Below are positions 764 to 38,409 of a stretch of DNA of 63,899 nt, piece by piece (the stretch's first letter is position 1; every line of letters starts with the position of its first letter). This DNA is from a virus. Taxonomy: Duplodnaviria > Caudoviricetes. The stretch spans positions 1 through 63,899 of IMG/VR virus record IMGVR_UViG_3300009506_000024. One strand, written 5' to 3'. A model generated the notes under the pieces. The model made no database searches, was not told the origin of the DNA, and saw only the letters and a list, made by a program, of their open reading frames with translations. The position numbers and the translations under genes were made by a program.

Positions 764-1663
764 ATGCCGTTCAAGAGCCAAGCCCAGCGAAGGAAGTTCT
801 ACGCTCTCAAAGCGCGCGGTGAAATGTCTCAGAAGACCATCGACGAGTGGCAGTCGAAGACTCCCAAGAATCTACCCGAGCGGGTGAAGCAAGCCTCCCT
901 CGACCGAATCACCTACTTGGCTTTCCAAAATGAGCTCGAGAAGATTGCTCAAGGTGGGTTGGTCAAGACCATGATCACCCCCGTCAAGACGCTCGTCCAG
1001 AAAGCTATCGGTGGTGCAGCTCATGCAGCTCCAGCGGCAGAGCAGGCCGTGGCCCATGCCGCCCCGGCTGCGGAGCAGGTGGCAGGCAGAGCTGCGAGGA
1101 CAGTCCAAAGAGCAGGTGAAGCAGCCAAGGACTTCTCTTTGGCTGGAGAGAAGGCGATAGCAGGTGCATCTCCCTCTGCCATCAAGAGCACTGGCGGAGT
1201 AGCCAGCGCGGGCAACATTCAGAAGACCTTGCAAGAGGCAGATCGAGTGCAGAGGGCTCAGAGATGGACGGCTGCGGCGCGGGAAGCCAGAGTCAACAAG
1301 GCTCTTCAAGAGGGCGTACTGGATCCGAAGGTCCACAGTGTTGGGGAGTTCATGCGTACGGGTCAGGTCACTCCAAAGAAGATAGTGTCGGCTCCGATTC
1401 CTCGACCAGAGGCTACCGCTACTGGCGTCAGCACTCTTCCTGAAACAGTCGTCGGCAAGCACAAAGCACTGACTGGGGCAGCACCTGCAATGCCGGGAGC
1501 GGCGCCCACGATGCCAGGCGGCATGCCTGCTATGCCGGGTGCGGCTCCGGCTGCTCCGGTGCAGGCCGGGCAAGGTGCGTGGTTCAGAGACCCGAGATTC
1601 GTCGGTGGAGGCCTCGGCTTGGGCGGCCTCGGCTTTGGTACTGGGGCTCTGGCGGCGGGCTAA
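764..1663 (+). CDS. Ala-rich putative internal virion protein with FxxELEKIA tag and C-terminal glycine zipper
   Basis: MPFKSQAQRRKFYA N-terminus, VKQAS and AFQNELEKIA motifs, AHAAPAAEQ repeats, C-terminal GGGLGLGGLGFGTGALAAG. Confidence 0.7.
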   Translation: MPFKSQAQRRKFYALKARGEMSQKTIDEWQSKTPKNLPERVKQASLDRITYLAFQNELEKIAQGGLVKTMITPVKTLVQKAIGGAAHAAPAAEQAVAHAAPAAEQVAGRAARTVQRAGEAAKDFSLAGEKAIAGASPSAIKSTGGVASAGNIQKTLQEADRVQRAQRWTAAAREARVNKALQEGVLDPKVHSVGEFMRTGQVTPKKIVSAPIPRPEATATGVSTLPETVVGKHKALTGAAPAMPGAAPTMPGGMPAMPGAAPAAPVQAGQGAWFRDPRFVGGGLGLGGLGFGTGALAAG

Positions 1664-1687
1664 AAGAGAGAGCTCGTCGGCTCTCTC
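1662..1687 (-). terminator. Intrinsic terminator between convergent genes
   Basis: GAGAGAGC-tcgtcg-GCTCTCTC hairpin preceded by AAAA (a U-tract on the minus strand). Confidence 0.6.
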
Positions 1688-1697
1688 AGTTCTCCTT

Positions 1698-1997
1698 TCA
1701 TAGAAGCTGTTGCAGGCGGTACTTACAGGCGGGACACACCTGTTTGTGGATGAGGTTCCACTCGGCGCGCTTCTCTTTGTCGACTTGGTCTGTGACCTTG
1801 TCTCTGAAGAAGTGCTCCCAGAGGTACGCCATCAAGCACGCGCCTGGACAATCGCACTCATCGTCACTGCATGAGCACGAGCAGAAGTGTCGCTCCTTCC
1901 CCCTTCTACGGATGACGTCGGCGTCCCCCACGACGATCTCTCCGCAGAAGTCACAACGGACGACGTTCGTTTTGCCTACCCGCATGATCGAAGCCAC
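1698..1997 (-). CDS. Small Cys-rich (Zn-binding) hypothetical protein
   Basis: CDFC, CSC..CDC and CPAC motifs; overlaps the upstream minus-strand ORF as an operon. Confidence 0.6.
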   Translation of the reverse strand: MASIMRVGKTNVVRCDFCGEIVVGDADVIRRRGKERHFCSCSCSDDECDCPGACLMAYLWEHFFRDKVTDQVDKEKRAEWNLIHKQVCPACKYRLQQLL

Positions 1998-2575
1998 TCG
2001 CCGTAGTCGGGAACGTCAGTCCTCTCGATGAGCCTCCAAAGCTCTACGTTTATTTCGTCCATGCACCAGTAGTGCACGTAGCCATTTTCCTTTGGCTTGA
2101 ACATCGAGAATGAGCCCTTGTTGCTGGGCTCCGAGAAGCCTCTCTCAATCAGGATTGTGCTTTCCCAATCTGGGTGGGGGTACGGCTGGATCACCTTGTT
2201 CGGCTTGTTTTTGTGGCACAGGCCGCACTGCCCATCCTTCGACAGGCGTTTCATCCTGTCGGAGAAGTTGAATCCTGGGCCATCGGCAATCGCTGGCAGC
2301 TCCGCCGCGCACTCGTGACAGATCCATTTCACGTTGTCTCTGTCTTCGAATGGCAGCGAGATGAACTGCATTCCCCACTTCCTGCGTCGGAGCGCTCCAT
2401 GCTGTAGCCTGAGAGCTGCGGGTCCCATGACGGCCCCCGAGCACAGCAAGCAATGCCCCAACGGAGAGTGTGACTTCGTGCTTTTCGGCTCAGCTCGTGG
2501 CTTTGCCTTCGGCTTCTTTATTCTTGGCCTCTTGTTGGGCCTCGTCGTACTGATGGACGGTCTTCTTGAGCTCAT
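1976..2575 (-). CDS. Zn-finger hypothetical protein with basic N-terminus
   Basis: CLLC, CHEC, CGLC and HYWC motifs; GGAGG RBS before ATG. Confidence 0.65.
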   Translation of the reverse strand: MSSRRPSISTTRPNKRPRIKKPKAKPRAEPKSTKSHSPLGHCLLCSGAVMGPAALRLQHGALRRRKWGMQFISLPFEDRDNVKWICHECAAELPAIADGPGFNFSDRMKRLSKDGQCGLCHKNKPNKVIQPYPHPDWESTILIERGFSEPSNKGSFSMFKPKENGYVHYWCMDEINVELWRLIERTDVPDYGEWLRSCG

Positions 2576-2626
2576 GGATTACCCTCCGACAGAAGAACAC
2601 CAGGAAGCCCAGAAGTACCAATCTCA

Positions 2627-2809
2627 TCAATCTTTGTTCTCCGTGCGCTCTGGCTCGTAGCTGCTGCCGTTGTTGTCGGTCTGGTCATACGAGGGCTGGT
2701 TCCAGGAGTCGTCCCCTGGTGGGTCGTCGTACTGGAAAAAGCCCCCGACCATTCCTTCGGTTCCTTGCAGGTCGTCACGATACCGTTCGAGCACAGAAGT
2801 TGATGCCAT
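2627..2809 (-). CDS. Small acidic hypothetical protein
   Basis: Strong GGAGG RBS before ATG; first gene downstream of an ATAAG motif. Confidence 0.5.
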   Translation of the reverse strand: MASTSVLERYRDDLQGTEGMVGGFFQYDDPPGDDSWNQPSYDQTDNNGSSYEPERTENKD

Positions 2810-2877
2810 TTGTTCCTCCGATTTGCCTGAGTAGTTGGACAGATTTATTGGGACCCTTCCACAGGTCTTATATCGAC

Positions 2878-2907
2878 TTGCTACCCCGAGATTTCGGGGG
2901 GTATAGT
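2878..2907 (+). promoter_or_regulatory. Sigma70-like promoter upstream of the RNAP gene
   Basis: TTGCTA-N18-TATAGT; the spacer contains the inverted repeat CCCCGA-GATT-TCGGGG. Confidence 0.5.
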
Positions 2908-2978
2908 GACCAAAAGGCTAAGACTTCCAACGCTTAGGCGGCTCTCGCGCCGCTCACGACGGTGGATGGGAGAGCAGG

Positions 2979-5900: not shown

Positions 5901-8900
5901 TTCGAGGGCTACATGAAGGGTATGGGCCTCGACATTCGGAAGGAAGGCAACGAACTCATCCTTCAGCCGCTCACGGACAAGAAGGTGTTGGAGATGAGCA
6001 ACGGCCCCCTGGCTGATGCTGGCCGAGCACTGCGAGCGAAGGATGCGAAAGAAGAAGCGGGAGGTATCTTCGACCCCAAAGTCACTGGAGGAGTGAAGGG
6101 GAAGAAGTGGTCTCACATAGCTCTTCCGGAGCGCATGCCCAACCCAGTCTTCGAAGCGCCAGTGACAGCCCTGCTAGGGCTCAACCAGAACAGCTACCGA
6201 AAGGTGGTGACTGGGGAACAAGAGCTCGATGGGAAGACAGGGCCGACAGCAATCGTGTCTGCTTTGAGAGGTCTCGACACAGCGAAGATGAAGTCCGAGC
6301 TCGAAGCTGAGATCCCAAACCTCAGAACGACTAAGCTGAACAAGGCCAACCGGAAGCTGAAGTACATCCGCGCGCTCGAGCGGGCAGAGATGGACCCCAA
6401 AGAAGCGTACACAATGAAGTACCTTCCTGTGTTGCCTCCTCAGTTCAGGCCGATCACCATCCTCGACAGTGGCGACATCAACTACGACGACGTCAACCGG
6501 CTCTACAATCACATCGGTCAGATCAAGCTGAAGTTCGACGACTTCGACCCGGCGCTACCTCCAGAGGAGAAGCTGCCGCTGCAGACGTCCCTCTACGACG
6601 GCCTCAAGGCGGTGACTCTCACGGGTCAGGTGCATCAAGGTCGGCATCGGAATGCCATCATTCAGACTATCGCAAGCGCCCAAGACCAACAGCCGAAGGA
6701 AGGGTTCTTCCAAGACAAGATCATTGGCCGGCGGCAGGACTTGTCCCTGCGCAGCGTCATCATCCCGGAGCCGTCTCTCAGTCTGGACGAGGTAGGGATC
6801 CCTCGGAAAGCTGCGACAGAGCTCTACAAGCCGTTCGTCGTTCGCAAGTTGACTCAGATGGGTCACCGACCGTTGGAAGCGCAGGACATGGTCAAGAAGA
6901 ACCACCCTGCTGCTGCTGATGCTCTGGCAGCCGTGCTCGATGAGCGCCCGCTGCTACTCAAGCGCGACCCAGTCCTCCACAAGTTCGGAGTCCAGGCTTT
7001 CAAGCCGAAGCTGGTAGAGGGAAAGGCCGTCAAGATTCACCCGCTCGCTACCGCTGGGTACAACGCTGACTTCGACGGCGACAAGATGAGTGCGTTCGTA
7101 CCAGTGAGCCCAAAGGCTGTGAAGGAAGCGTACAAGATGCTTCCTTCCAACAACCTGTTCAACCCATCGACTGGATTCCTGATGTCGAAGCCGACGCAGG
7201 AGTCCATGATGGGGCTCTACAAGATGAGCGAGTTTGGGAAGAAGACCAACAAGAAGTTCAGCTCGCCGGCGGAGGCAGCTCGGGCTGTGAAGGATGGGGA
7301 CATCGACATGAACTCCATCATCAGCCTGGACAACCTGGATGAGGGAGATCTCTTCAAGGACCTGGTGAAGCAGGCGGCGCCGCTTCAGACCACTGTTGGC
7401 CGGCTCATGCTCTACCAGTCTTTGCCTGAAGACCTTCGGGACAAGCGCCTGCTCACAGACCCGGCGTACGTGATGAACAAGGGCAACTTGTACGGCTTGC
7501 TCACTGACGTAGCTAAGAAGTCCCCTGGGGATTTCGGTACCGTCTCCGACAAGTTCAAAGACATCGGGAACGAGTACGCCACTGGCCTATCCATTGGGCT
7601 CGACGACTTTGTGTCTGACGCGAGCTTCAGGGATAGCGTGCTGAGAGATGCCGCTCGAGCAGAGTCCACCGTCAGGTCCAAGAACATCTCTGTCCAAAAG
7701 AAGAAGGACAAGATTGTGGACATCTACGTGGGCGCCTCGGAGAAGATCACGAAGGAGACCAAGAAGCGCGCGGACGCTCAGCAGAATCGGATGTACGACT
7801 GGGTTCGGTCCGGAGCTCGAGGAAGTTGGGACCAGTTCAAGCAGATGACAGTCGCTCCTATGCTGGTAGCCGACTCGAAGGGAGAACCAGTACCGATTCC
7901 GATTCCGAAGTCCTACTCAGAGGGGCTGGACATCGGGTCGTACTTCGCGTCCATGCACGGAGCTCGGATGGGAACCATTGGTCGTGTCCAAGGCACCCAA
8001 GCTCCAGGAAAGATGTCGAAGCAGCTCATCAACACCACCATGAATCAGATGGTGGTCTCCGACGACTGCGGCACTACAAAAGGTGTGGTCCTTCCCGCTG
8101 ACAGCAGAGATGTGCTTGACAGGTTCACCACTCGGGACGTGCGACTAGGAACCAAGGGAGGCCAGGACAAGGGTGTCATCCCTGCGGGTACTTTGGTGAC
8201 CCCAGACGTCGTGAACAGGCTCAAGAACAACAAGGTGGCGAAGATCGAGGTTCGGTCACCGTTGAAGTGCGCTCACGGCAAGGGCCTCTGCGCCAAGTGC
8301 TACGGCATCAACGAAAACGGGAAGCTCCATTCACCGGGGGCAAATCTTGGAGTGATAGCCGCCCAGGCTCTTGGTGAGCCGGCTACGCAGCTTGCCATGA
8401 ACGCCTTCCATACTGGAGGTGTGGTAGGAGCGAAGGGTACTCAGGCTACCGGCATGTTCCAGCGGCTCGAGCAGCTTCTGAACGTGCCAAAGACCCTCCC
8501 TGGATCAGCCACCTTGGCTGATGTCGAAGGGACGGTGGACAAGGTGGAGAAGGACCCGGCGGGCGGGTGGAGAGTTCACGTTGCAAACCAAAGCACTACG
8601 AGGTCTCACTACGTTCCCGCAGCCCGCGCCATCACCGTCAAGAAGGGGGACCAGGTGAAGATGGGGGACTCTCTTACTGATGGACCGAAGAACCCCAGAG
8701 AGATGCTGCGGCGGACCAACATGAACGCGGTCCAGAAGTACCTCACTGATGAGATATGGAAGGCCTACGAGAGTGAGGGGCCGGTGAAGAGGCGGAACGT
8801 GGAGACGTTCGTCCGGTCCATGACGAACCTGAGCGAGATTTCGGATCCGGGAGACCACGATACCCTTTTGAGAGGAGACCGAACGCCTACATCTGAGATC

Positions 8901-10352: not shown

Positions 10353-12362
10353 ATGACCACTCAACCATTGTTTCTCGACCGCCAACTCTCCTTCGAAGGA
10401 GAGGAAAAGCTCGCGGGCATGCTCACTCGCTTGAGCGACAACACGGACAACTGGCAGCAGGAGATCACGCAGGAAGCGTATCGCCGGTTGCCTTACCTGA
10501 GCGACTTCGAAGTTCACGTCGTACTCGATTCGGTGGACGAGGAGAGAGGGTACGCCTTCGGCTCCATCGAGGTGTCACCGAAGAGCTCGATGACCGTCGA
10601 GGAGATGACCGACGCAGGGATGCAGAAGGTCCACATCCCCATCGTCATCAAGGAGCAGATGCTCAGCCCCCTCGACGTGTTCCTGTCTGGAAAGCAGTAC
10701 TTCCACCTCACGGAGGCCCGACTCCGTGAATCATTGTTCCGGGCCGAGACGTTTGATGCAGCTCGCACCCGACCGTACGACCCGTCTCTGGTCAACGACC
10801 TGCAGCCTCCACTCCGTGCGGGGTACGGAGGCTTCGGCGCCGGCGGCGTGAAGATGGGCGCGGCCATGGCCGAGCTCAAGATGCTCCCGATTCTGCCCCA
10901 GCTCCACGGTCGGGTGAAGCAAGCTCACGTCGACCGCATCAAGAAGGCGATGACTGACCCTTCCATTCAGACTCAGGTCCTCACTGGGAACGAAGGAGTG
11001 AAGGCAGCTTTTGCCTCTGCGATGAGGCTCACCCCCACCGACCTGGAGAAGTCTGCAGCGGCAGTGGCCGGGAGGATTCGCCCTACTGTGGTGCAGCTCC
11101 GAAAGCTGGGGACCGAGAAGGTCTTGGTGAAGTGGGCGAACGATGAGATGTTCTCCCCTCAGGAGGAAGAGATCCCCTTCGATGCCGCGCAAGACATGCT
11201 CGGGGACGAAGACCTCACCGCTCAGCTCGAGAGTGACGGTACCGTGACCATGAGCCCGGACGCTGCGGTCAAGCAGACGCTCGAGGCTGAAGAGGTTCGG
11301 GTGGCGGACTCGTTCGGACTGTGGAAGGTGCAGCAGACCACCGGCGACACGATGATTGGTTGGGTCTTCCCGCAGCTTCTCGATCTGGACCTCAACGTCC
11401 TTCCGCTCTCATTGTTCAACAACGGTTCGCAACACGCCCTGCAGGAGAACATCGCCGGCGAAATGGCAGGCAAGTCTCTCGACATCCCGAAGGGGATTCC
11501 GAAGGGCTACGGAGCCCTCTACTACACGGACCACGGGACGGCGAAAGCCTTCGTCCCGATGACCATCAGCAGCTCGATGAGAGACCCGGGCGGGTTGAAG
11601 TTCATGGCGCAGACCGACATGGGCGACCAGGTGACGTTCTCGTTTGCCGAGGGCATCAAGAAGCCTGTCCGCGCGGGCGAGAATGAGTGGGTGCTTCCCA
11701 ACTACTTCAACTGGATGCCCTTGCGTGGCAAGACCGAGCTCGTCGACCAGCCGGCTCTGTTCAGCAAGCTCGGCTCTGCCAACCGTACCGGCACCGTGGA
11801 CATCGTCGGTGACAGCGCAGGCATCTACTCGTTCCGAGGCCCGGCCATCTCCAAGGTGGCTCAGCAGCACACCAAGTTCATCGACCACAATCAGGCCGTG
11901 TTCCTGGGAGTGGGACTCGGGATGACCGAGAGCTTCTGCAAGGAGGCCCTCGCCAAGGCCAAGCTCGGTGAGCGCGTCTCAGTGTCGGGTCTGAAGGTTC
12001 TCGGAAGCCTGAAGGAAAAGATGGCCGGCATTCGAGCCAACCTTCAGAAGGAGCTGTCTGAGCTCGACCCACCTATCCACAACTACTTCCTCGCCAAGGA
12101 AGCATCCGTCCTCGACGACGCCCTGACCGCGGACAAGATCCTCGGTCTGGGCTTCCTCAATGCAGAGAACGTAGCTACGTTCGTGGACCTTCTTCCTGCG
12201 CTCGAGGCGGCGTCATCAAAACTCGCAGAGCTCCTGGTCGCAGTCCGGGTGGGCCTCAAGGAGGTGCCCGAGGTGGCGGTGGAGCGCATGCTCATTGCCA
12301 TGGAGGACGTCATCCGAGGTCTCAAGTCCCTGCGTCAGAAAGAACTGAAGTTCTCCAACTAG
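10353..12362 (+). CDS. Conserved-looking virion (head) protein with K-x-A sites
   Basis: AAGGAG RBS, strong coding bias; EEKLAG, LEKSAA, SKLGS, SKVAQ and AKEAS motifs. Confidence 0.65.
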   Translation: MTTQPLFLDRQLSFEGEEKLAGMLTRLSDNTDNWQQEITQEAYRRLPYLSDFEVHVVLDSVDEERGYAFGSIEVSPKSSMTVEEMTDAGMQKVHIPIVIKEQMLSPLDVFLSGKQYFHLTEARLRESLFRAETFDAARTRPYDPSLVNDLQPPLRAGYGGFGAGGVKMGAAMAELKMLPILPQLHGRVKQAHVDRIKKAMTDPSIQTQVLTGNEGVKAAFASAMRLTPTDLEKSAAAVAGRIRPTVVQLRKLGTEKVLVKWANDEMFSPQEEEIPFDAAQDMLGDEDLTAQLESDGTVTMSPDAAVKQTLEAEEVRVADSFGLWKVQQTTGDTMIGWVFPQLLDLDLNVLPLSLFNNGSQHALQENIAGEMAGKSLDIPKGIPKGYGALYYTDHGTAKAFVPMTISSSMRDPGGLKFMAQTDMGDQVTFSFAEGIKKPVRAGENEWVLPNYFNWMPLRGKTELVDQPALFSKLGSANRTGTVDIVGDSAGIYSFRGPAISKVAQQHTKFIDHNQAVFLGVGLGMTESFCKEALAKAKLGERVSVSGLKVLGSLKEKMAGIRANLQKELSELDPPIHNYFLAKEASVLDDALTADKILGLGFLNAENVATFVDLLPALEAASSKLAELLVAVRVGLKEVPEVAVERMLIAMEDVIRGLKSLRQKELKFSN

Positions 12363-27336: not shown

Positions 27337-28884
27337 ATGAGTATGCAAACGTCGGTTTTCGAGATGGTCCACCAGGTGCTTGGCGATGCCAAAGAGAAGT
27401 TGGCTGCTGACAAGGCGGCCTCCACTCAGGGTGTCGAGAAGACAGCGGCGGCTTCGAAACCGCGGCCATCTGCCAAGCCCGAGGCTGGAGCTGGTCAGAT
27501 GCTCAGCGATGAGTATCTGGGCAAGCTGGCCTCAGCCTGTGACCACCTCGCGTCGAATCTCCACTTGATCGAAGACCAACGAACTCCGGCTGAGAAGCTG
27601 GCTGAAGCGGTGGCGATCAACCAAGCCCTCATGAAGAAAGCCTTCGAGGGCGGGGACAAGAAGCACCAAACTACCCAAGCCAACGCCGATTCGATCTCTC
27701 CGGCTACGGTGACCACGGACTCGTCCGGCACCGCATCGGACAGCATCGGCTCTGGCAACGCCATTCCGTCTGCCCCCAACAACGCCCCTGGCGAGTCGTT
27801 GGATGCAGGTCAGAGTGGTCAGGCCGCCTCGGCGGTCACGGGTAGCACCACTCCCAACGAGAAGGCCAATCCGATGGACCCGGCCAACTCGATGGAGACC
27901 AATGTGGGCATGATGATGCCGGAGCAGCCGGAGGCCCTCCTCCAGCAGTCCGGCGGCGATGTGTCCACGGGCGACAAGACCGCAGCCGCGCGTGCCCTGC
28001 GCACCATCGGCAAGGTCTCTGGTCGGACCGAGGCAGAGGCTCGGATGAAGGTGGCGCAAGCCAAGAAAGTCCGTGTCCTCCTGACCAAGGCCGCCCAGGC
28101 AGGTATCCCCCAAGAGGTTGCTCTGGCCATGCTCGGCCTGGGCAAGCACGCGGAGGACGCCATCAACCCGGCAACCATCTCTGGCGGGACCTCTCCGGTC
28201 CTCCAGCAGGAGCCGGGGGTCCCGAGTCCGCTCATGCAGGGCTCGGAGGCCGGAAGCAACACACCTCGTGCCACCGCACCGACGTCTGGTGAAGGGGGAG
28301 GCCGGGAGCTTCTGAGCAGCAACGAGTCTGCGATGAACGCGACCAAGAGCCAAGCCAAGCAGCAGAACAAGGGCGCGATGGGCGAGTTGTTGACTGAGCC
28401 GATGATGTCGGCCAGTCGGGATAGCACTCTCCAGAAGTCGCTGGATAACACCTCCTCAGCGGGTGTGAAGATTTCTGCGATGCGGAGTCTGCTCAAGAAG
28501 TTTGCGGCAGCATCACCTTCACAGGCTCAGAAGCTCGCCGCGCTCGCCAAGTTGGCCTTGGATCCCGCGATGGCGGATGACCCAGAGGCGGTACCCCCGG
28601 AGGCAGCCCAGGCTGCAGCCATGGAAGGTGCCGGCGAAGGGGAAGTCCCCGAAGCGGCTGAAGAGGCAGCGGCAGCGGGCGTGACGCCGGAAGAGCTCGC
28701 GCAGGCGTTGGCCCTTCTCGGAGAGGAAGGGGCCGCAGGCGAGGAAGAGGCAGCTCCGGAAGCGGGAGCCGAGGAACCAGAGAAACAGCAGCAGCTCGGA
28801 ATGGGCGCTCCAATGGGCGGTGCCCCAATGGGCGGCACGATGGGCGGCGCTGGGACTCCTTCACCGACTCCTATGATGTCGTAG
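27337..28884 (+). CDS. Scaffolding-like low-complexity protein
   Basis: AAGGAG RBS; EKLAA, EKTAA, GKLAS, DKTAA, TKAA, GKHAE and QKLAA motifs; located upstream of the capsid genes. Confidence 0.65.
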   Translation: MSMQTSVFEMVHQVLGDAKEKLAADKAASTQGVEKTAAASKPRPSAKPEAGAGQMLSDEYLGKLASACDHLASNLHLIEDQRTPAEKLAEAVAINQALMKKAFEGGDKKHQTTQANADSISPATVTTDSSGTASDSIGSGNAIPSAPNNAPGESLDAGQSGQAASAVTGSTTPNEKANPMDPANSMETNVGMMMPEQPEALLQQSGGDVSTGDKTAAARALRTIGKVSGRTEAEARMKVAQAKKVRVLLTKAAQAGIPQEVALAMLGLGKHAEDAINPATISGGTSPVLQQEPGVPSPLMQGSEAGSNTPRATAPTSGEGGGRELLSSNESAMNATKSQAKQQNKGAMGELLTEPMMSASRDSTLQKSLDNTSSAGVKISAMRSLLKKFAAASPSQAQKLAALAKLALDPAMADDPEAVPPEAAQAAAMEGAGEGEVPEAAEEAAAAGVTPEELAQALALLGEEGAAGEEEAAPEAGAEEPEKQQQLGMGAPMGGAPMGGTMGGAGTPSPTPMMS

Positions 28885-28912: not shown

Positions 28913-29266
28913 ATGCAAAAGATCAGTTCACAAGACGCGGCTTCCCTCCTCAAGCAGGCGGGGGCCGCCATTCGTCACCTGACGAAGGAACGCAACAGTC
29001 TTCGGACGAAGGTTGCCGCGTTCGAGAAGCAGGAGCGGGTGGAGAAGATTGCCCGGGACATGGAGGAGAAGGGCCTGAGCTCTGACCTCGACCATCAGCA
29101 GAAGGTCGCGGCGCTGAGCAACGTTCCCAACCTCGATGTCACTGAGGAAGCCATCAAGCTCGCTGCCCCACAAGGGTACGTGCTCGGCAACCTCGGTGAT
29201 CAACCGGGCGGTGGCATGCACGCTTTCGAGCACTTCATCATGACGGGTGAGGACCCGACTGAGTAG
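28913..29266 (+). CDS. Coiled-coil scaffold-like protein
   Basis: Heptad-rich; TKVAA, EKIAR, QKVAA and IKLAA motifs. Confidence 0.65.
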   Translation: MQKISSQDAASLLKQAGAAIRHLTKERNSLRTKVAAFEKQERVEKIARDMEEKGLSSDLDHQQKVAALSNVPNLDVTEEAIKLAAPQGYVLGNLGDQPGGGMHAFEHFIMTGEDPTE

Positions 29267-29826: not shown

Positions 29827-30948
29827 ATGAGTATGGTTCAAGCATCCCTCGAAATGTTCAACCAGCGGTTGGACTCTCAAGAAGGCAAAGACAAGATCGC
29901 CGAGCTCGGCGGTTCTTGGATTCGTGACCGTCTGCGCGAGGTGGCGTACAGCCGCCACATCCTGCCCCCGGAGCAGGTCACCCGCGCCGACTGCCAGCGT
30001 TCGGTCAACCATGACACGCTCGTGAAGATCGTGGACGTCGAGCCTCAAAGCCGCGCCATGGCCATCACGTTCCGTGATCAACCGACCGCGCGCTTCATCC
30101 GTGCGCCGAAGGCGGAGATCCCGTTCTTCACCATCTCGAGCGAGAAGTTCGAGAAGACGGAGCAGGAGCTCCTGGCGTACGAGATGCCGATCACCAAGGT
30201 GATCGAGGACAACTCGGTCAAGGACATCCAAGAGATCGAGGACCGGGAGTTCACCCGACACATCGAGTCCGGTGTGCAGGGCCTCCAGGCCGAGGTCAAC
30301 GGCACGGGCACGGCGTACAACGCCACCCAGATCCGCGCCCTCGCGGCCGGTGCCCAGGTGGTGTCCGTGGTCAAGGGCGAGCTCGCCCTTGCCGCTGACG
30401 GCACGGACTTCGTGGTTCGCCCGATCCAGCGTCCGGACTTCGTGGAGCTCTTCAAGCTCCTCGACAACAACCGCCTCCGTTCGGAGCGGATGTTGATCAC
30501 CGAGGGTGACCACGACGACGTCCTCCAGTGGACCGTCGAGGACTTCGGTGACAAGATCCAGTCGGAGACCGTGGTCGACGGCTACAAGTACAACACCTTG
30601 CTCGGACGCAAGGTCGTTCGTACCGTGAAGACGGACATCCTCCGGACGGGGAATGTCTACATCTTCACCGCGCCGCAGTTCTTCGGGAAGTTCTACATCC
30701 TGAACAACACCAAGTTCTACATCGACAAGATCGCAAACGTGATCACGTGGCAGAGCTGGGAAGACATCGGGATGGGCATCGTCAACATCGCGTCCTGCCG
30801 CAAGCTCGAGCTCTACCGCGGGTCGGTGAAGCCGGGTGACGAGGACACGGGTTACGAGGTCAAGCTGCCGAGCCTCGAGGAGGATCTCGGAGCGGAGAAC
30901 AACCGGGTCGACGCCGGCCTCCACTTCCCGGATGTGCAGCAGTTCTAG
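29827..30948 (+). CDS. Major capsid protein (HK97-fold)
   Basis: Strong AGGAGG RBS, extreme codon bias, 373 aa, follows protease/scaffold genes, hairpin after the stop codon; IRDRLRE..SRHILPP and ..KDIQEIEDREF spine-helix-like segments. Confidence 0.8.
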   Translation: MSMVQASLEMFNQRLDSQEGKDKIAELGGSWIRDRLREVAYSRHILPPEQVTRADCQRSVNHDTLVKIVDVEPQSRAMAITFRDQPTARFIRAPKAEIPFFTISSEKFEKTEQELLAYEMPITKVIEDNSVKDIQEIEDREFTRHIESGVQGLQAEVNGTGTAYNATQIRALAAGAQVVSVVKGELALAADGTDFVVRPIQRPDFVELFKLLDNNRLRSERMLITEGDHDDVLQWTVEDFGDKIQSETVVDGYKYNTLLGRKVVRTVKTDILRTGNVYIFTAPQFFGKFYILNNTKFYIDKIANVITWQSWEDIGMGIVNIASCRKLELYRGSVKPGDEDTGYEVKLPSLEEDLGAENNRVDAGLHFPDVQQF

Positions 30949-32103: not shown

Positions 32104-32106
32104 GCC

Positions 32107-32529: not shown

Positions 32530-32532
32530 GCG

Positions 32533-33184: not shown

Positions 33185-35419
33185 ATGGCTGACTGGAAGA
33201 GGTACCTACAGAAGCTCGCTGATGAGGACGAGGCTGAGGACAAGGGGCGCCCGCCTACTGAGGAAGAACGCGCCAAGATCCAGGCATTCATTCGTGAGAA
33301 TGCTGACCTGAGTGACGATGCGTTCCACTCCTTCGTGGAGGACATGGGGTTGAACCCACATTTCGCAGAGCCCGTAGCCTACGAGATGGCGCACAACCTT
33401 TCGAAGAAGGCTGCCTTCAAGCTAGCCCTCCAGGATCTGATTCCGGGGGGCAAGGCGGATGACAAGCCTGTGTCCGACTTCTCTCCAAAGCAGATGGCGA
33501 TGGGTCAGAAGGTGGAGATGGAACACACCGACGACCCCACAAAGGCTCGGGAGATCAGTCGTGACCACCTCGAAGAGTTCCCTGACTACTACACCCGTCT
33601 CAAGAAGATGGAAGACGAGGCAAAGAAGGAGGCGTCCGCGCTGTTAAAGCTGGCGAGGAACATGCCCCACTTCACCGAGCAGGATCGTCCAGAAAAGGTC
33701 AAGGAGATCTACCGCGCGCTCAAGCGAGATCACCCTGACATGCCTGCTGAGATGAAGGCTCGAATTGCCGCGCGCCAGGGAAAGAAGGGCAAGCAGCATC
33801 AAGGTCCTCCCTACAAGGGACCTCTCACCAAAGGTGCCTCTCGTCTACCACAAGGACTGCTCGAGGTAGCGGACAAGCCCGGTGCCTGGAAGAATGCAGT
33901 ACGAGGAGGAGAGTACGCTTGGAAGAAGCTGATGATGCGCGACTTTGGTAGGCATCAGGCTCGGACGATTGCCCGAGAAGCATCGTCGTTGGAGCCCGCG
34001 CTGGCCAAGTCACGCCGTGCAGTCCATGAGTACCAAGCGAAGACTCACGGTCCCTTCCTACGAGAAGGAGTAGAAAAGGCTCTCTCAACCGTCCCGAAGG
34101 TGAAGAAGGCTGCCCCCACAGCTCTCGTTCCTTTGGAGGAGGCCGCTAAAAGGGGACCGAGCTTCGCATCGAAGATCATCTCCAAGCTCAAAGATGTAGC
34201 TCCGTACGCGGCCATCGCCGGCGCACCCATTGCCGGCGCCGCCGGTCTCGGAGCTCTCAGAGCCCACACCTATCAGAAGGCTCGAAAGACAGAACCCACT
34301 GCTGAGCGCACCTTGAAAGGTGCTTGGGGTGGAGTCAAAGGCGGGTTGACTGGAGCCGCTCTGGGGACAGGTCTGGGTGGCGTCATGATGGCGCCTTTGG
34401 TTCTCCCTGGAGTACTTCGAGCACTCGCATTGAGAAAAGCCCACCCCGGATATGCCGCCAGCGCGATGCGCTCAGCGATGTCTGGTGCGCTTCCAGCCGC
34501 TGCGGTCACAGGTACCGCTGGAGGTCTGCTCGGAGCTACTCATGGTGGGTGGAGGGCCATCCAGGGCGACATCAACAAGGAAAAGCAGAAGGAGTACCGA
34601 GTGCGAAAGAAAGAAGAGGCGAGTGGAAAAACGGTGGAGGCCTCCAGCAAGAAGGCTTCTCTCCACTCTGCACTGGTCGCGCTCCACAATGAGTACGGCC
34701 CACCGAAAGTGAAGCACGCAGCCGCTAACTACTTCTTCTACGACATCAATCGAGGAGAGCGGGACGCAGAGGCTCTGGGAGCTCCGTTCTGCAAACTTGC
34801 CGCGCGGAGTGATGTGGACCCGTGGGATATGGCCATGGGAGTCACGATCAAGTTCGAGCAGCTCGAGAAGATGGCTCAGGCTCGCGGGGCTGGCGGTGAC
34901 TTGGCTCGGTTCTACATGAGCTGGGCAGACGAGATCGTGAAGAAGGCCGGTCTCCTAGATACCGCTATCCGGGTGGGACGGGCTGCCAAAGCTGGAGTAG
35001 GGGCCGCTATCCCGAAATCGTCCAAGAGCTTGATGAACGCCGCCGTCAAGGCAGAGCAGGCTGGGGCTCAGATCCCCGCTCGAACAGGGGTTCGTCAGGC
35101 TGTAAAGTCATCCCTGGCTGAGTCGCGCGCTCTTCAACAGGCCGGGGGCGGAAGCATCCGGCGTGGAGAGCAGCTCGCCAAAGCAGACCCAGGCTTGCTG
35201 AGTGCAGGCCGACAACCCCCCATCACGTACGCTCCTCCGCCAGCCGCCCCAACAGGTGCTGCTTCAGCGGCAGGGGCTGGGATGAAAACCGCACCTCAGG
35301 GCATGAGTAGGGCTAAGAAGCTCCTGCTCGGCACGGCAGGAGGACTGGGCTTGGGCGCTGGTATCGGCGGCGCTTCCTATGCTCTGAGTCCCTCCGAACC
35401 ACAGTTCCAAGGAGGCTAG
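33185..35419 (+). CDS. Modular polyprotein containing a DUF5661-like domain and glycine-zipper modules
   Basis: DLIPGGKAD...GQKVEMEHTDD...DHLEEFPDYYTRL (~33434-33620). Modules are separated by QKLAD, SKKAA, KKEAS, TKGAS, VKKAA, SKKAS, VKHAA, EKMAQ and VKKAG. Confidence 0.75.
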   Translation: MADWKRYLQKLADEDEAEDKGRPPTEEERAKIQAFIRENADLSDDAFHSFVEDMGLNPHFAEPVAYEMAHNLSKKAAFKLALQDLIPGGKADDKPVSDFSPKQMAMGQKVEMEHTDDPTKAREISRDHLEEFPDYYTRLKKMEDEAKKEASALLKLARNMPHFTEQDRPEKVKEIYRALKRDHPDMPAEMKARIAARQGKKGKQHQGPPYKGPLTKGASRLPQGLLEVADKPGAWKNAVRGGEYAWKKLMMRDFGRHQARTIAREASSLEPALAKSRRAVHEYQAKTHGPFLREGVEKALSTVPKVKKAAPTALVPLEEAAKRGPSFASKIISKLKDVAPYAAIAGAPIAGAAGLGALRAHTYQKARKTEPTAERTLKGAWGGVKGGLTGAALGTGLGGVMMAPLVLPGVLRALALRKAHPGYAASAMRSAMSGALPAAAVTGTAGGLLGATHGGWRAIQGDINKEKQKEYRVRKKEEASGKTVEASSKKASLHSALVALHNEYGPPKVKHAAANYFFYDINRGERDAEALGAPFCKLAARSDVDPWDMAMGVTIKFEQLEKMAQARGAGGDLARFYMSWADEIVKKAGLLDTAIRVGRAAKAGVGAAIPKSSKSLMNAAVKAEQAGAQIPARTGVRQAVKSSLAESRALQQAGGGSIRRGEQLAKADPGLLSAGRQPPITYAPPPAAPTGAASAAGAGMKTAPQGMSRAKKLLLGTAGGLGLGAGIGGASYALSPSEPQFQGG

Positions 35420-35421
35420 TC

Positions 35422-36783
35422 ATGTTGGACCAGTACATTCAAGGTTTGGTCGTTGAGGCCAATGCAAGGAACAAGCTCGACGCTCACCTCGAGGGGCTGG
35501 CCAAGCAGGCTGCCGCCGAGGCTGAGATGGAGGCTTTTCTCGAAAGGGCCACTGCTGCAGAGCTCGCCAAGATGGCGGGTGTCGTGCTGCCGGCGAGCAC
35601 TTGTCCTCAGTGTGCGTCGGAGATGCAGAAGCTCGGCAGCGTCTACCACTGCGCGTGCGGGATGATGAAGCGGGCCAAAGAGCTCCCTCCCGAGCTCGCA
35701 GAGAACGCGGCGAAGACCCAGTCAGTCCAGGACCCTGACAAGCCGGGGGCGGAAGTCCCGGCCAAGCCGGCCTCTGAAGAGAAGCCGGAGAAGGAGTCCA
35801 AGTGCAAGACAGCGTCCATTGCCAACTTCGCTGAGGCTGTCATCGTCGCAGACGGGAACGTGAAGCTCGCCTTCGACGTCCTGGCTCAAGCTGGCTTCGA
35901 GGAGCTCGGCTTCACCCAGGAGGACATCGAGAAGAACGCTTTTTTGGGCAAGGCTTTCCAAGGCCTGGGAGCTGGACTGAAGGGTGCCTGGGGTACCCTC
36001 AGGGCCGGAGCGAAGGCCGGTGGAGGTCTAGGGGCAGCCGCCCGTGAAGCTGGTGGCGCCATGAAGACCTTCGGGAAGGACGTCGGGTCTGGCGTCGCCA
36101 ACGTCGCGCGTCAGGTGCCTGCTAAGGCCAAGGAGGTCCAACAGACCTACCAGGGCGCTCGAGCGGGCCAACCTGGTCTCTTTGGCACGTCTCTGATGGC
36201 TACCCCCGGCAAGGGTGTCGGTGGTGCGCTCATGGAGACCGCCAGGGCACACCCAGGGGTGGCCATGGGCCTGACGGGAGCAGGGGCTGGCGCTGCCGGC
36301 TTTGGGCTGGGCAAGCTCAGCTCCGCCAGGGAGCTCGTCGAGGTTGGGGACGCCGCGGGCCGACTGATGGCCAAGACCGCCCTCGAGCTCGACCCGGCCG
36401 AGGTCGGGGAGGCTATCGAGGCTGCCAAGGAGCGCGAGGACATCCCTGGGCGAGCTCGTCGATGGGGCGCCGCCGGCGCCGGTATCGGAGGGCTCGGAGC
36501 GGGTGCCCTGGGCGCTCTCGGAGGCATGGGAGTCAGCAAGATGCTGGGTGGCAAAGGCCGGATTGCGGCCCCACTGATCGGCGCGGCTCTTGGCGGTACC
36601 GGGGGAGGAGTCCTCGGACACCGAATCGGAACGGAAGAGGGTGCTGAGGAGGCTGCGGCTGACCGACTCGTCTCCATGCTGCGAGGCCGTCGAGCCTACA
36701 TGGCTGGTGGGCAGCAGGGGTATGCTCAGGGGCTCCAACGGGGCTTCAACGTGGGCCGAGGCGTCCCAGGCCGCCCTCAGTAG
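35422..36783 (+). CDS. Modular protein: Zn ribbon + Gly/Ala-rich membrane hairpins
   Basis: CPQC..CAC; CKTAS, EKNAF, GKLSS and AKTAL motifs; GAAGAGIGGLGAGALGALGG. Confidence 0.75.
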   Translation: MLDQYIQGLVVEANARNKLDAHLEGLAKQAAAEAEMEAFLERATAAELAKMAGVVLPASTCPQCASEMQKLGSVYHCACGMMKRAKELPPELAENAAKTQSVQDPDKPGAEVPAKPASEEKPEKESKCKTASIANFAEAVIVADGNVKLAFDVLAQAGFEELGFTQEDIEKNAFLGKAFQGLGAGLKGAWGTLRAGAKAGGGLGAAAREAGGAMKTFGKDVGSGVANVARQVPAKAKEVQQTYQGARAGQPGLFGTSLMATPGKGVGGALMETARAHPGVAMGLTGAGAGAAGFGLGKLSSARELVEVGDAAGRLMAKTALELDPAEVGEAIEAAKEREDIPGRARRWGAAGAGIGGLGAGALGALGGMGVSKMLGGKGRIAAPLIGAALGGTGGGVLGHRIGTEEGAEEAAADRLVSMLRGRRAYMAGGQQGYAQGLQRGFNVGRGVPGRPQ

Positions 36784-36791
36784 GGGCACAG

Positions 36792-37199
36792 ACGAAAACG
36801 GGTGGGGTTGAGAAAACAGCCCTGGTCGGTGCCCTAACACACCCGCTGGCAATCGGGACCGGTCTCGGCGCCCTCGGTGGTGCCGGCATCGGGTACCTCG
36901 CCTCAGATGAGGATGACCCGACCAACATCCGCCTGCGCAAGACTTTGGTGGGTGCTGGTACGGGCGCGGGCATCGGAGCGCTTGCTGGCGGTCTGTCTGC
37001 GTCTGGTGGGATCCCTATGGAGCAGGTGAAGAACATCACGTTGTCCAGTCACGCTCAGGGCTTCGGGGATGCTCTTCGCAAAGCAAGTGGCAACCCTGAC
37101 CTGGCCAAGGAGATCCTGAGCAAGATGGAGCCCAAGATGAGGGACCAAGTCATCAAGAGCTTCAACAAGGGCTGGCTGGCGAGGTGGTTTGGAGGATGA
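36792..37199 (+). CDS. Glycine-zipper protein, apparent ACG start
   Basis: The frame of track ORF 36945..37199 looks coding from 36792 (xKTGGVEKTALVGALTHPLAIGTGLGALGGAGIG...). An AGGGG RBS lies 5 nt before the ACG. Confidence 0.55.
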   Translation, partial: TKTGGVEKTALVGALTHPLAIGTGLGALGGAGIGYLASDEDDPTNIRLRKTLVGAGTGAGIGALAGGLSASGGIPMEQVKNITLSSHAQGFGDALRKASGNPDLAKEILSKMEPKMRDQVIKSFNKGWLARWFGG

Positions 37200-38080
37200 T
37201 CAGCATCACCCAAATACACGTGAGGAGCTACGACCTCGATCATCTCGACATCTTCTGGGAGATCCCGGAGATTTCTGAGCAGCTCGAGGACTATGACTTC
37301 TTCGTGTTGAGGAGCACGGACGGCGCTGCCGGTCCGTTTGAGGTGCTTGCTGGTCCGTTCTACAACACGTTCCATTTCCGAGACATTGACGTCCACATGC
37401 TGAACAAGTGGCGTCAGTACTACTACAAGATCCGAGTCGTCCATCGCTCTTCTCAGAAGGCGAAAGAGTTTGGCCCTCAATGGCTCCGCGCGCAGCCGGA
37501 TCTGTTGGGGCTCGAGTTCCAGCGTCGTGAACAGCTTCTCTTCCAGGAGTTCAATGGCCGGATAGCGTTTCTCTTTCCTGCCCTCACTTTTGGACAGAGG
37601 TGCGGACACTGTTGGGACCTCGGCCCCAAGAACAACACCATCGGAAGGTCGAAGCATCAGAACTGCTCGACCTGTTTCGACACGACTTTCGTCGGGGGCT
37701 TTGCGTCTCCGATTCTCTTCTACGTGCAGATAGACCCATCCCCCAAGTCGGTGCAGATCACTGAGATGGGGGAGGATCAATTCGTTCACTCCACCGGGCG
37801 CACCACAGCCTTCCCGCCAATCAAGGCGAAGGATATTATTGTGGAAGCGGAGAACAAGAGGTGGCTCGTGAACAGCGTCAGCGGCACGGAAAAGTTGAGA
37901 GGGTCTGTTCGTCAAGAGATGCGGCTGTTCGAGCTACCCAGGGACGACATCAAGTACAAGGTGCCTGTGGACTTTGATCTGCTACGACAGCATTCACCAA
38001 GCCGTGCGTTCACGCGGCCCATGTGTTTGCAGGCTGAGCAGTTGGAGCCCGTAGCTGACGCCTGGGAGACCGAAGGATGA
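37196..38080 (+). CDS. Probable neck/head-closure protein with Zn site
   Basis: GGAGG-coupled ATG at 37196; FN3-like N-terminus, CGHC..CSTC, KDIIVE..NKRW.V; upstream of the tail genes. Confidence 0.55.
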   Translation: MISITQIHVRSYDLDHLDIFWEIPEISEQLEDYDFFVLRSTDGAAGPFEVLAGPFYNTFHFRDIDVHMLNKWRQYYYKIRVVHRSSQKAKEFGPQWLRAQPDLLGLEFQRREQLLFQEFNGRIAFLFPALTFGQRCGHCWDLGPKNNTIGRSKHQNCSTCFDTTFVGGFASPILFYVQIDPSPKSVQITEMGEDQFVHSTGRTTAFPPIKAKDIIVEAENKRWLVNSVSGTEKLRGSVRQEMRLFELPRDDIKYKVPVDFDLLRQHSPSRAFTRPMCLQAEQLEPVADAWETEG

Positions 38081-38409
38081 TTCCGAGCATGAGAGCTTTC
38101 AGTGATGAGCTCATGCTCATCAAGCAGGCCGAGGAGGAGAAGCACAAGTCCGAGCTTCCCGGCATGCTCAAGAATAGGTTCCTCAAGTCAGCACCGTTGT
38201 TCGCCCTGGGTGGCGGGCTTGGAGCTGGAGCTGGGTATCTACTGGGAGAGAAGACTCGCCCGTGGCTACTCAAGAACATGACCCCCGGCGGTCGCAGTGC
38301 AGCTCTGGCTGCTACGACAGGTCTGGGGGCAATAGGGGCAATCGCTCTTTGGGAGGCGATGAGAACCGCGGAGAAGGCTGACAGGGATGCCACCAAGCGA
38401 AACAGTTAG
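38077..38409 (+). CDS. Small two-helix glycine-zipper membrane protein with AFSDEL..IKQA tag
   Basis: MRAFSDELMLIKQAE; LFALGGGLGAGAGYLLG; ALAATTGLGAIGAIALW. Confidence 0.7.
   Translation: MIPSMRAFSDELMLIKQAEEEKHKSELPGMLKNRFLKSAPLFALGGGLGAGAGYLLGEKTRPWLLKNMTPGGRSAALAATTGLGAIGAIALWEAMRTAEKADRDATKRNS

Follow-up and report, generated by a model that had tools for sequence, protein, structure and literature searches.

A prohead protease that cuts many head and ejection proteins at one short consensus is already known, as is the processing of polyvalent proteins by an embedded peptidase. T4 gp21 has the experimentally established cleavage consensus I-x-E or L-x-E and trims itself at both ends. Herpesvirus assemblin, a pUL26-type fusion of protease and scaffold, cleaves V/L-x-A↓S. 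To our knowledge, the phages with a mapped short consensus for proteolytic head maturation are few, namely T4, phiKZ, 201phi2-1 and SPN3US. For phiKZ gp175 and SPN3US gp245, the accessible part of the source gives the consensus A/S/G-x-E, describes many head proteins with multiple N-terminal copies of the motif, and reports that gp245 trims itself at its C-terminus (PMC10052503). The available sections on polyvalent proteins (Iyer et al. 2017) predict processing by a peptidase domain and mention assemblin-like peptidases (PMC5512222). In phage P1, according to excerpts of PMC9024508, the large Dar enzymes are loaded into the head via short N-terminal signals, and the capsid protein and DarA are processed. 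Here, 63,899 nt of the IMG/VR virus record IMGVR_UViG_3300009506_000024 (the window) are analysed. The head genes of this large, uncultured phage are rich in K-x-A followed by a small residue, and one of them (22532..26050) encodes a 1172-aa protein with a protease-like domain at its N-terminus. The full motif, [L/M/F]-[E/V]-K-x-A-[S/A]-A, is probably the recognition and cleavage consensus of the phage's own prohead serine protease.

To quantify the motif, the 56 curated genes of the window were translated and counts were compared with those in 300 shuffles of each whole protein and in 300 more that kept residues inside their 30-aa block. The excess is concentrated in genes 19796-29266 (3011 aa), where K-x-A-[SAG] occurs 31 times against 8.1±2.8 expected, K-x-A 71 times against 27.6±4.8 and K-x-A-S 15 times against 1.7±1.3, each count being reached in 0/300 shuffles. 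Genes 33185-36783 (1197 aa) show a smaller excess of K-x-A-[SAG] (12 vs 5.8±2.3; 8/300 shuffles) and of K-x-A-S (5 vs 0.8; 1/300). The left arm (764-16607, 5148 aa) has no overall excess of K-x-A-[SAG] (8 vs 7.7; 154/300); its sole excess is E-K-x-A-[SAG] (5 vs 0.4; 0/300), located in genes 10353 and 14451. The capsid-protein block 29310-33039 (1182 aa) has none against 1.7 expected, the tail genes 37184-43656 (2141 aa) have 3 against 1.2 (36/300), and the right arm (5219 aa) has 8 against 6.0 (78/300). K-x-A-[SAG] is likewise absent from the large terminase and from genes 9167, 12372, 12896, 13882 and 19442. In all, the signal is carried by about 10 of the roughly 30 genes in 764-38409, and many of the sites cluster in the N-terminal regions of head proteins.

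Five control patterns were flat in every block: the reversed pattern [SAG]-A-x-K, Arg for Lys (R-x-A-[SAG]), Gly for Ala (K-x-G-[SAG]), and spacings 0 (K-A-[SAG]) and 2 (K-x-x-A-[SAG]). At the DNA level, AAR-NNN-GCN occurs 71 times in frame in block 19796-29266 and only 1 and 3 times in the other two frames, which indicates that the signal acts at the protein level. Self-BLAST among the motif-rich proteins, which are Ala-rich (10-19%), revealed no paralogy. Composition, local composition, a DNA-level signal and paralogy were ruled out as sources of artefact by the shuffles, the frame test and self-BLAST. The enrichment of hydrophobic-x-Lys-x-Ala-Ser/Ala in head-assembly proteins of the window and its relatives is thus real. 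A previous interpretation from the letters alone (the sequence-only reading) had held that nearly every head-region protein is punctuated by K-x-A plus a small residue. That wording is too strong, given the roughly ten carrier genes, the empty capsid block and the flat left arm. The motifs that it quoted (VKQAS, EKTAA, EKLAS, EKVAS, KKEAS, AKTAS, NKTAS, EKSA, EKNA, CKLAS, EKIAS twice and TKEA) do all exist, as does DKIAE near the N-terminus of the capsid protein (K23-I-A25). The excess that it expected over a composition-matched null agrees with the counts. Its K-x-A-[small] core stands, within a longer motif than it stated.

An unbiased scan, in which all 1200 residue pairs at spacing 0-2 were ranked by their excess over per-protein expectation, placed K-x-A at the top in the window head block, far ahead of the rest (z 8.6); no x-E pair was enriched there. 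In the 10 kb upstream of the capsid gene, K-x-A ranked 1 in 27/30 related loci and 2 in the other 3/30, a set that includes near-duplicates (L031/L032 and L063/L064 gave identical numbers and are taken as duplicates for that reason). In the downstream regions of the related loci its z ranged from -0.8 to 3.6. K-x-A was also the top pair in gp218-225 of Salmonella phage Arash (44 vs 19.7) and in their equivalents in Vibrio phage D69 (50 vs 20.7). As a positive control, T4 gp68, gp21 and gp22 were passed through the same scan, and I-x-E and L-x-E came out as ranks 1 and 2. This recovery of the gp21 consensus indicates that a prohead-protease consensus leaves such a footprint, the gap-1 pair corresponding to P3-x-P1.

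The clade logo, built from 1319 unique sites, reads [L/M/F]-[E/V]-K-[L/V/T]-A-[S/A/E]-A, and its information is confined to these seven positions, with none beyond P5 and P2'. Two residues after the Lys, Ala alone is enriched (observed/expected 2.22 upstream of the capsid gene and 1.22 downstream). Two positions before the Lys, Leu is enriched 2.7x and Met 3.2x, and Ser is enriched 3.1x directly after the motif Ala, where Ala also occurs.

The candidate protease is part of a motif-rich head protein:

22532..26050, plus strand: protease polyprotein, 1172 aa, with predicted N-propeptide, protease core, variable linker, InPase, Gly-zipper insert, small alpha/beta module and conserved C-terminal domain
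22628..23236, plus strand: protease core, aa 33-235, delimited by the AlphaFold2 (AF2) fold and a PHROG match
23054..23056, plus strand: Ser175, candidate catalytic serine by its invariance, in D-V-S-M-G

This product contains 23 K-x-A sites, and [LIMVF]-x-K-x-A occurs 10 times against 2.3 expected (0/500 shuffles). Its gene sits in the head module, upstream of the capsid gene. The first ~300 residues are kept across all 30 related loci (alignment A1), and the peptidase is N-terminal in the window protein and in every one of them. An AF2 model of the N-terminal ~300 aa is confident at aa 34-234 and unconfident at 1-33 and 235-300. Compared with 48161 chains by VIA-align, the model has T4 gp21 as its top match (5jbl_A, Z 8.3, 136 aa, root-mean-square deviation 3.1 A). 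Further matches are the proteases of varicella-zoster virus (VZV; Z 5.5), human cytomegalovirus (HCMV; Z 4.3) and Kaposi's sarcoma-associated herpesvirus (Z 2.6); the next unrelated family has Z 4.3. Foldseek likewise returned 5jbl as its top match (E 0.02, prob 0.90), and the core has a weak match to the PHROG family phrog_18299, 'head maturation protease' (E 7.6e-6).

Ser175, His82, His118 and His119 are invariant in 21/21 sequences of alignment A1, so that, judged from sequence, candidate His residues for an assemblin-type Ser-His-His site are present. The sole hhalign segment sets Ser175 opposite T4 gp21 residue 140 in a match that is non-significant (E 0.17). Residue 140 is, we assume, the gp21 nucleophile. 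The families concerned are presumably S77 of Pfam and MEROPS for gp21-type prohead proteases and S21 for assemblin. Because the fold matches but the Pfam, PDB-sequence and hhalign searches (given below) were negative, the domain is treated here as a putative prohead protease working like gp21 or assemblin whose sequence-family membership is not demonstrable. The assemblin likeness suggested earlier from the letters therefore survives at the level of predicted fold (VZV protease Z 5.5, with T4 gp21 as best match), while a recognisable HK97-type family does not.

In three relatives, inteins (Hint plus LAGLIDADG) interrupt the protease domain (L012:93-6188, L041:3783-6596 and L050:2800-6819). Those of L012 and L041 are inserted 2-3 residues after the D-V-S-M-G serine, and two are present in L050. 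In many of the 150 family representatives listed, the match to the profile is broken into 2-4 separate stretches at profile positions ~177-191, which suggests a frequent intein insertion point.

Sites of the motif lie closely on both sides of the core:

22619..22627, plus strand: K30-E-A32, predicted N-propeptide site, by conservation
23264..23272, plus strand: K245-L-A247, followed by Ser, immediately downstream of the protease core, with an invariant K245 in alignment A2
23357..23365, plus strand: K276-A-A278, second post-core site; K276 is nearly invariant, and a hypervariable linker follows

K30 and A32 are invariant in 21/21 sequences, and the site falls within a segment (1-33) whose predicted local distance difference test (pLDDT) score is below 50. 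The N-propeptide site is also found in Arash gp222 (LTKQAAA) and D69 (LEKSAAA). K238 and K245 come after the last core strand, and after a variable 25-40 residues downstream of the core sites a near-invariant [E/V]-K-[T/A]-A-S appears. This layout around the core is common to Arash gp222, D69_0270 and Bacillus phage G gp19 (LEKVAS at residue 248).

The same arrangement is seen family-wide. An hmmsearch of 1.84 billion representatives returned 2990 members of the protease family at E<=1e-3, and site counts were taken from the 150 listed of these. Among the matches listed, the post-core tails of 99 proteins contain 911 K-x-A against 366 expected (z 28.5, top pair); K-x-A occurs within 16 aa after the G-A-D anchor in 76/101; K-x-A-[SAG] occurs at +17 to +75 after the core in 73/101, against 15/101 after shuffling, with Ser next in 52/73 of these sites; and K-x-A is found at residues 16-50 in 59/67 representatives.

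Beyond the protease core, the polyprotein consists of modules with sites at their edges:

23927..24301, plus strand: InPase domain PF18823, predicted cargo module (Pfam E 9.4e-32; confident AF2 block 438-597)
24332..24340, plus strand: K601-V-A603, followed by Ser, at the C-terminal edge of InPase in a nine-sequence full-length alignment
24449..24691, plus strand: Gly/Ala-rich, glycine-zipper-like insert, aa 640-720, pLDDT<50, bounded downstream by K725-E-A (24704-24712)
25046..25054, plus strand: K839-T-A841, followed by Ser (A-K-T-A-S); K-x-A-[SA] in 8/8 relatives having the region
25154..25162, plus strand: K875-A-A877, followed by Ser, just ahead of the C-terminal domain; K875 is invariant in 9/9
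25124..25981, plus strand: C-terminal domain, aa ~865-1150, conserved in every clade member down to the minimal forms of 549-590 aa

At the InPase edge, E600 and K601 are invariant in 9/9 sequences and G-E-K-[VL]-A is kept in 8/9 (the ninth, L040, has EKIS), and the stretches between module-edge sites are hypervariable in the nine-sequence alignment. InPase itself was found in the protease proteins of 9/14 relatives scanned, and the glycine-zipper insert 640-720 occurs only in the window protein, the other 8 aligned relatives being without it. In the minimal clade form (549-590 aa), only protease and C-terminal domain are present; everything else is inserted between them, with lengths up to 2031 aa. 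The C-terminal domain, possibly an anchor in the prohead, has no family match, and ESM Atlas (aa 865-1172) gave only unnamed viral clusters at 0.75-0.76. In a full-length AF2 model from the nine-sequence alignment, 19/23 K-x-A sites fall in residues with pLDDT<50, which make up 57% of the chain (binomial p 0.0096), and the eight edges of four confident blocks lie on average 9.0 aa from the nearest site (permutation p 0.004).

Two further proteins of the window carry modules bounded by the motif:

33185..35419, plus strand: DUF5661 and Gly-zipper protein, 744 aa, with Pfam PF18905 at aa 102-145; 8 sites vs 2.4 expected (p 0.004)
33626-33634: K148-E-A150, followed by Ser (K-K-E-A-S), directly after DUF5661 in gene 33185
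14451-16607, plus strand: ligase, glycine-zipper and DnaJ protein, 718 aa
15876-15884, plus strand: I-E-K476-S-A of the ligase fusion
16401-16409, plus strand: E-K651-I-A-S of the ligase fusion
16434-16442, plus strand: M-K662-A-A of the ligase fusion
16461-16469, plus strand: E-K671-I-A-S of the ligase fusion

In the related locus L012, DUF5661 lies inside the protease polyprotein, which also carries an intein; KGKTAS, KRKTAA and DGKPAS stand upstream of DUF5661 and KLKEAS downstream. The ligase domain ends in W-H-L-[D/E]-K-G-[D/E]-I-E-K-x-A in 4/4 homologues, and tails of ~12, ~30, ~240 and ~500 aa follow. The 12-residue tail of the L106 ligase matches window aa 662-673, so that the glycine-zipper and DnaJ part of the window protein reads as an insertion between duplicated sites. 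These comparisons give direct support to the 'plug-in' idea of the sequence-only reading, in that modules flanked by K-x-A appear to move between genes among relatives: the same modules are flanked by K-x-A-S in different genes or inserted between duplicated sites, and the protease protein ranges from 549 to 2031 aa through what is inserted between its two constant ends, the protease and the C-terminal domain. The placement of motifs at domain boundaries holds at the ends of the ligase and of InPase, beside DUF5661 and ahead of the C-terminal domain. Mapping onto AlphaFold boundaries and conservation across relatives, both named earlier as checks, came out in its favour, conservation holding in position and at both clade and family scale.

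Glycine-zipper (Gly/Ala-rich hydrophobic) segments recur in at least 5 head-block proteins (21744-22535, 26150-27034, 33185-36783, 15900-16100 and 24449-24691). They may be membrane-active or channel-forming ejection peptides.

The other predicted substrates are as follows:

19796..21490, plus strand: motif-rich head protein, 564 aa; [LIMVF]-x-K-x-A 7 vs 1.0 (0/500 shuffles)
21744..22535, plus strand: head protein, 263 aa, with N-terminal sites and a Gly-zipper, homologous to Arash gp221; 3 sites vs 0.5 (p 0.010)
26150..27034, plus strand: acidic scaffold-like protein, 294 aa; 10 K-x-A sites
27337..28884, plus strand: low-complexity Ala/Pro/Glu-rich scaffold-like protein, 515 aa; 14 K-x-A sites
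28913..29266, plus strand: head protein, 117 aa; 5 K-x-A sites, of which 33 and 45 are kept in 14/15 relatives
35422..36783, plus strand: Gly/Ala-rich protein, 453 aa, with N-terminal sites; 5 vs 1.1 (p 0.004)
10353..12362, plus strand: protein of 669 aa with excess sites; [LIMVF]-x-K-x-A 5 vs 1.2 (p 0.012), E-K-x-A 3 vs 0.3 (p 0.004)
29827-30948: major capsid protein
29893..29901, plus strand: capsid-protein site K23-I-A25, kept in 26/26 relatives

Among the head proteins that evolve fast (35-45% identity), single K and A positions are much better conserved than the residues around them. For gene 19796, whose product has an N-terminus homologous to Arash gp220 and D69_0268, the Lys of sites 475 and 506 is kept in 17/18 and 16/18 relatives, at flank identities of 0.21 and 0.37. 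Of the sites in gene 26150, 27 and 121 are shared by 12/12 relatives and 145 by 11/12. Site 63 of gene 27337 keeps its Lys in 21/21 and its Ala in 20/21 at a flank identity of 0.29, and site 270 is kept in 20/21. A tblastn search of the 10353 protein against the phage collection gave no match. The capsid proteins of Arash (LVKEAGA) and D69 (LTKEAGA) have a site at the equivalent place, residue 27.

A possible further substrate is the RNA polymerase of the left arm:

2979-9158, plus strand: fused beta-beta' RNA polymerase, 2059 aa, with Rpb2_6 (Pfam E 5e-61), Rpb1_2 and Rpb1_5
7368..7376, plus strand: K1464-Q-A1466, followed by Ala, the only K-x-A-[SAG] in this protein

Overall, the fused polymerase is if anything depleted in the motif ([LIMVF]-x-K-x-A 1 vs 3.7). 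K1464 lies in a variable insertion loop, exactly at the point where the gene is split in D69 and Arash. The D69 polymerase is encoded by two genes (1527 and 609 aa): D69_0261 aligns to window residues 5-1450, D69_0264 (from its residue 7) to 1473-2052, and Arash gp216 to 1472-2051, the last ~580 residues. K-x-[ASG]-[ASG] is present in 16/16 sequences having the loop, as strict K-x-A in 10 of them, and in 0/5 without it. In Arash virions, the available part of PMC10585845 reports detection by mass spectrometry of the gp220-gp225 homologues and of the RNA polymerase subunits, the subunits being the most abundant.

From the enrichment, conservation and module-edge placement of the motif, the fold similarity of the protease and the shuffling of modules, we infer cleavage, its bond, packaging and ejection as follows. 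The polyprotein and the products of 19796, 21744, 26150, 27337, 28913, 33185 and 35422 would co-assemble inside the procapsid, probably with those of 10353 and the ligase fusion 14451 and perhaps with the fused RNA polymerase. The protease would cut after Ala, with K as P3, A as P1 and S/A as P1'. It would free itself from its N- and C-terminal extensions, strip ~25 residues off the capsid protein and chop the low-complexity scaffold-like proteins to peptides. Folded cargo modules (InPase, DUF5661, ligase, J-domain and glycine-zipper peptides) would be released, remain in the head and presumably be ejected with the DNA. Since flanking sites are all that a module needs, cassettes could enter the polyprotein between its constant protease and constant C-terminal domain or pass from one gene to another. 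Three lines suggest that the cargo is packaged: gene position, the polyvalent-protein precedent (available sections of PMC5512222) and the Arash virion proteomics.

Several points weigh against proteolysis of this kind. The fold match of Z 8.3 is within the range that the tool calls common, so that its support is moderate. Pfam searches at E<=10 on the protease domain of the 21 members of alignment A1 gave nothing relevant (0/21), the protease-domain profile found only chance matches among PDB sequences (best E 0.034, a lyase), and hhalign of A1 against T4 gp21 was non-significant (probability 0.4%, E 0.17). Related loci share ancestry, so that counts across them are not independent. About half of all K-x-A occurrences are expected background, which leaves individual sites uncertain, and some conserved ones (K1034; K301 of the capsid protein) lie in conserved, probably folded segments. 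In the capsid-protein site, the Ala is followed by Glu or Gly and not by Ser or Ala. In the RNA polymerase, 6/16 loops have Ser or Gly at +2, where clade-wide only Ala is enriched, which weakens the case for that site. The full-length AF2 model is poor (mean pLDDT 48, 9 sequences), so that low confidence need not mean disorder, and the block-edge test is supportive only, because the block boundaries were picked from the same pLDDT profile. The Arash paper, in the part available, reports no processing and gives 80-100% coverage for gp220-225 (PMC10585845); taken literally, this coverage argues against loss of propeptides, but the values look unreliable (100% from 2 peptides). The phage G paper gives no cleavage sites (PMC12484599).

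For assigning K to P3 and A to P1, the models are the cuts of T4 (L/I-x-E↓), of SPN3US (A-x-E↓) and of herpesviruses (V/L-x-A↓S). A cut after the Lys of the same site, [L/M/F]-x-K↓x-A-S, would give a hydrophobic P3 and a charged P1, and it would fit both the hydrophobic residue two before the Lys, which has the spacing of T4 L/I-x-E, and the rank of T4 gp21 as closest fold match. It would, however, turn the second strongest determinant, the Ala that alone is enriched at +2, into P2' and leave P1' unconstrained, unlike the T4, SPN3US and herpesvirus proteases, where P3-x-P1 sets specificity; the preference of SPN3US for Ser right after the cut fits K-x-A↓S instead (both SPN3US points from the accessible part of PMC10052503). 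The start of D69_0264 also aligns, within alignment error, to window residue 1467, directly after A1466. We consider a cut after Lys unlikely. A scan of 285 head-block ORFs for natural protein ends at the motif found none ending in K-x-A, which is uninformative on the bond. Alternatively, K-x-A-S could be an uncut docking or targeting motif for the capsid shell, portal, scaffold or DNA, as the many sites in N-terminal regions might suggest. T4 internal proteins use short N-terminal capsid-targeting sequences. P1 internal proteins do likewise, according to excerpts of PMC9024508, and the high coverage of Arash gp220-225 in the available proteomics would suit an uncut motif as well. One would not expect such a motif to flank the protease core at either end in 101 diverse members of the family, to border inserted cassettes or to mark the RNA polymerase split point, and the T4 control shows this statistical signature arising from a protease consensus. 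Docking without cleavage is accordingly quite improbable.

The sites might also be cut by another enzyme, from the host or a second one of the phage, given that the catalytic residues of the 22532 product are candidates only and that no family hidden Markov model matches it. Nevertheless, the motif co-occurs with this protease family from the window clade to Arash, D69 and Bacillus phage G, in very different hosts, and its sites hug the protease core itself, so that we regard a foreign protease as very improbable. Finally, the Ala-rich composition of the enriched proteins and the repeated units in some of them (EKIAS twice in the window; LEKAAAV three times in Arash) could suggest that the pattern arises as a by-product in Ala/Lys-rich scaffold proteins, through their composition, the periodicity of helices, internal repeats or paralogy. 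The whole-protein and local shuffles, the flat controls and the self-BLAST result described above speak against this; an i→i+2 pair is no helical period, and K and A are conserved where their flanks are only 20-40% identical. A by-product of this sort is hardly credible. Cleavage after Ala by the protease domain of the 22532 product thus remains the probable explanation.

If so, several features are new: a consensus with Lys at P3 and Ala at P1, a protease placed at the N-terminus of a polyprotein whose C-terminal domain is constant, the evidence from cassettes and the size of the family; a post-translational split of a fused RNA polymerase is a possible addition. A search of the literature on prohead protease cleavage motifs (T4, SPN3US, P1 and polyvalent-protein papers only) found no description of a K-x-A-type consensus. 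The motif gives another, very large family of proteases a sharply defined consensus that can be tested, predicts substrates and mature ends for about ten window proteins and for homologues in Arash, Vibrio phages D69, D181 and D148 and phage G, and offers a concrete mechanism for the processing of 'polyvalent' cargo proteins, previously conjecture only. Fully tryptic proteomics searches would miss these ends because trypsin cuts after the P3 Lys. A bolder proposal, which we put forward tentatively and hold to be rather doubtful, is that this very large and mostly uncultured family (2990 representative clusters at E<=1e-3, ranging from Arash-like phages of ~190 kb up to the Bacillus megaphage G), with its assemblin-like K-x-A↓S, forms true polyprotein hubs. 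Any site-bracketed module between the protease and the C-terminal anchor would then be carried into the procapsid, cut free and ejected, be it an enzyme, a membrane-active glycine-zipper peptide or even the fused beta-beta' RNA polymerase, which would be split after translation at the place where relatives carry two genes. In that case the 7-residue site would be a natural, portable 'load-and-release' tag for phage capsids, and a candidate tag to load and release foreign proteins in them.

The window as a whole has ~59% G+C, nearly all genes on the plus strand and a CheckV completeness of 33%. Its remaining landmarks are:

16591-17283, minus strand: RNase HII (Pfam E 7.6e-28)
17625-19445: large terminase
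19796-29266: unannotated head genes, including the 1172-aa protease-like and InPase protein at 22532-26050
33185-36783: two Gly/Ala-rich proteins, followed by sheath and tail genes
right arm: nucleotide-metabolism and DNA enzymes

Viral contigs yielded 282 confirmed relatives of the capsid protein, many of them encoded on contigs of 185-200 kb. The nearest cultured relatives, Salmonella phage Arash and Vibrio phages D69, D181 and D148, are distant (25-27% identity in capsid proteins, 38-39% in protease domains). RNase HII is among the very few minus-strand genes, and its 3' end shares 17 bases with the end of the ligase gene. The 1231-aa product of 39173-42868 is far longer than usual sheath proteins; its last ~175 residues match tail sheath family phrog_279 (E 3.6e-7) and D69_0281. 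J-domain (DnaJ) proteins occur twice, at 49695-50618 (307 aa, J-domain at the C-terminus) and at 14451-16607, the two J-domains being 42% identical over 38 aa. Nucleotide-metabolism genes cluster in 45902-57246 (NT5C, deoxynucleoside kinase, thymidylate kinase, ThyX and DUF6884), together with a UvrD-type helicase and an SLT transglycosylase; a motif excess is seen in none of them. A protein of the tubulin/FtsZ family is encoded at 59844-61079 (E 2e-15 to Pfam Tubulin, with a weak TubZ-like C-domain), which together with the probable virion RNA polymerase is reminiscent of PhuZ in nucleus-forming jumbo phages.

Among known systems, T4 gp21 with its substrates (gp22, gp23, gp24, gp67, gp68 and internal proteins) is the best predicted-fold match and is likewise a head-module gene. 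In both phages, the core and scaffold proteins are rich in a short motif of the P3-x-P1 type, one scan recovers both motifs, and self-trimming at both ends and removal of an N-terminal capsid-protein peptide are predicted for the window as well. Unlike gp21, the window protease has no detectable sequence-family membership and a K-x-A rather than an L/I-x-E motif, and proteases of its family are fused to up to ~1700 aa of cargo plus a conserved C-terminal domain, with frequent inteins. As in phiKZ and SPN3US, several head proteins carry multiple N-terminal sites, the protease is flanked by sites, with a predicted C-terminal propeptide, and Ser follows the predicted cut (accessible part of PMC10052503); an RNA polymerase in the particle is a further likeness, here from the Arash mass spectrometry in the portion available. 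The differences are Ala instead of Glu at the predicted P1, cargo enzymes that share a polyprotein with the protease, and membership of a separate ~190 kb phage clade. P1 Dar resembles the window in having large enzymes as head cargo together with capsid-protein processing, both predicted here. In P1, as far as the excerpts go, the authors compare the protease with HK97 gp4, the Dar proteins have no shared consensus and the cargo is not in a polyprotein with the protease (PMC9024508).

Two further systems place the protease and its cargo in one chain. Herpesvirus assemblin provides the second-best fold matches (VZV Z 5.5, HCMV Z 4.3) and shares an N-terminal protease in a fusion, a site directly after the protease and Ala-Ser at the predicted cut; the window motif differs in having Lys, not a hydrophobic residue, at P3, and the window has many more predicted substrates and enzymatic cargo, in a bacterial virus. 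Polyvalent proteins, in the available sections of PMC5512222, are multi-domain virion-associated proteins that include InPase PF18823, and the window correspondingly joins protease, InPase PF18823 and further modules in one 1172-aa protein. Their assemblin-like peptidase is C-terminal, whereas that of the window stands at the N-terminus, with modules delimited by a specific site consensus.

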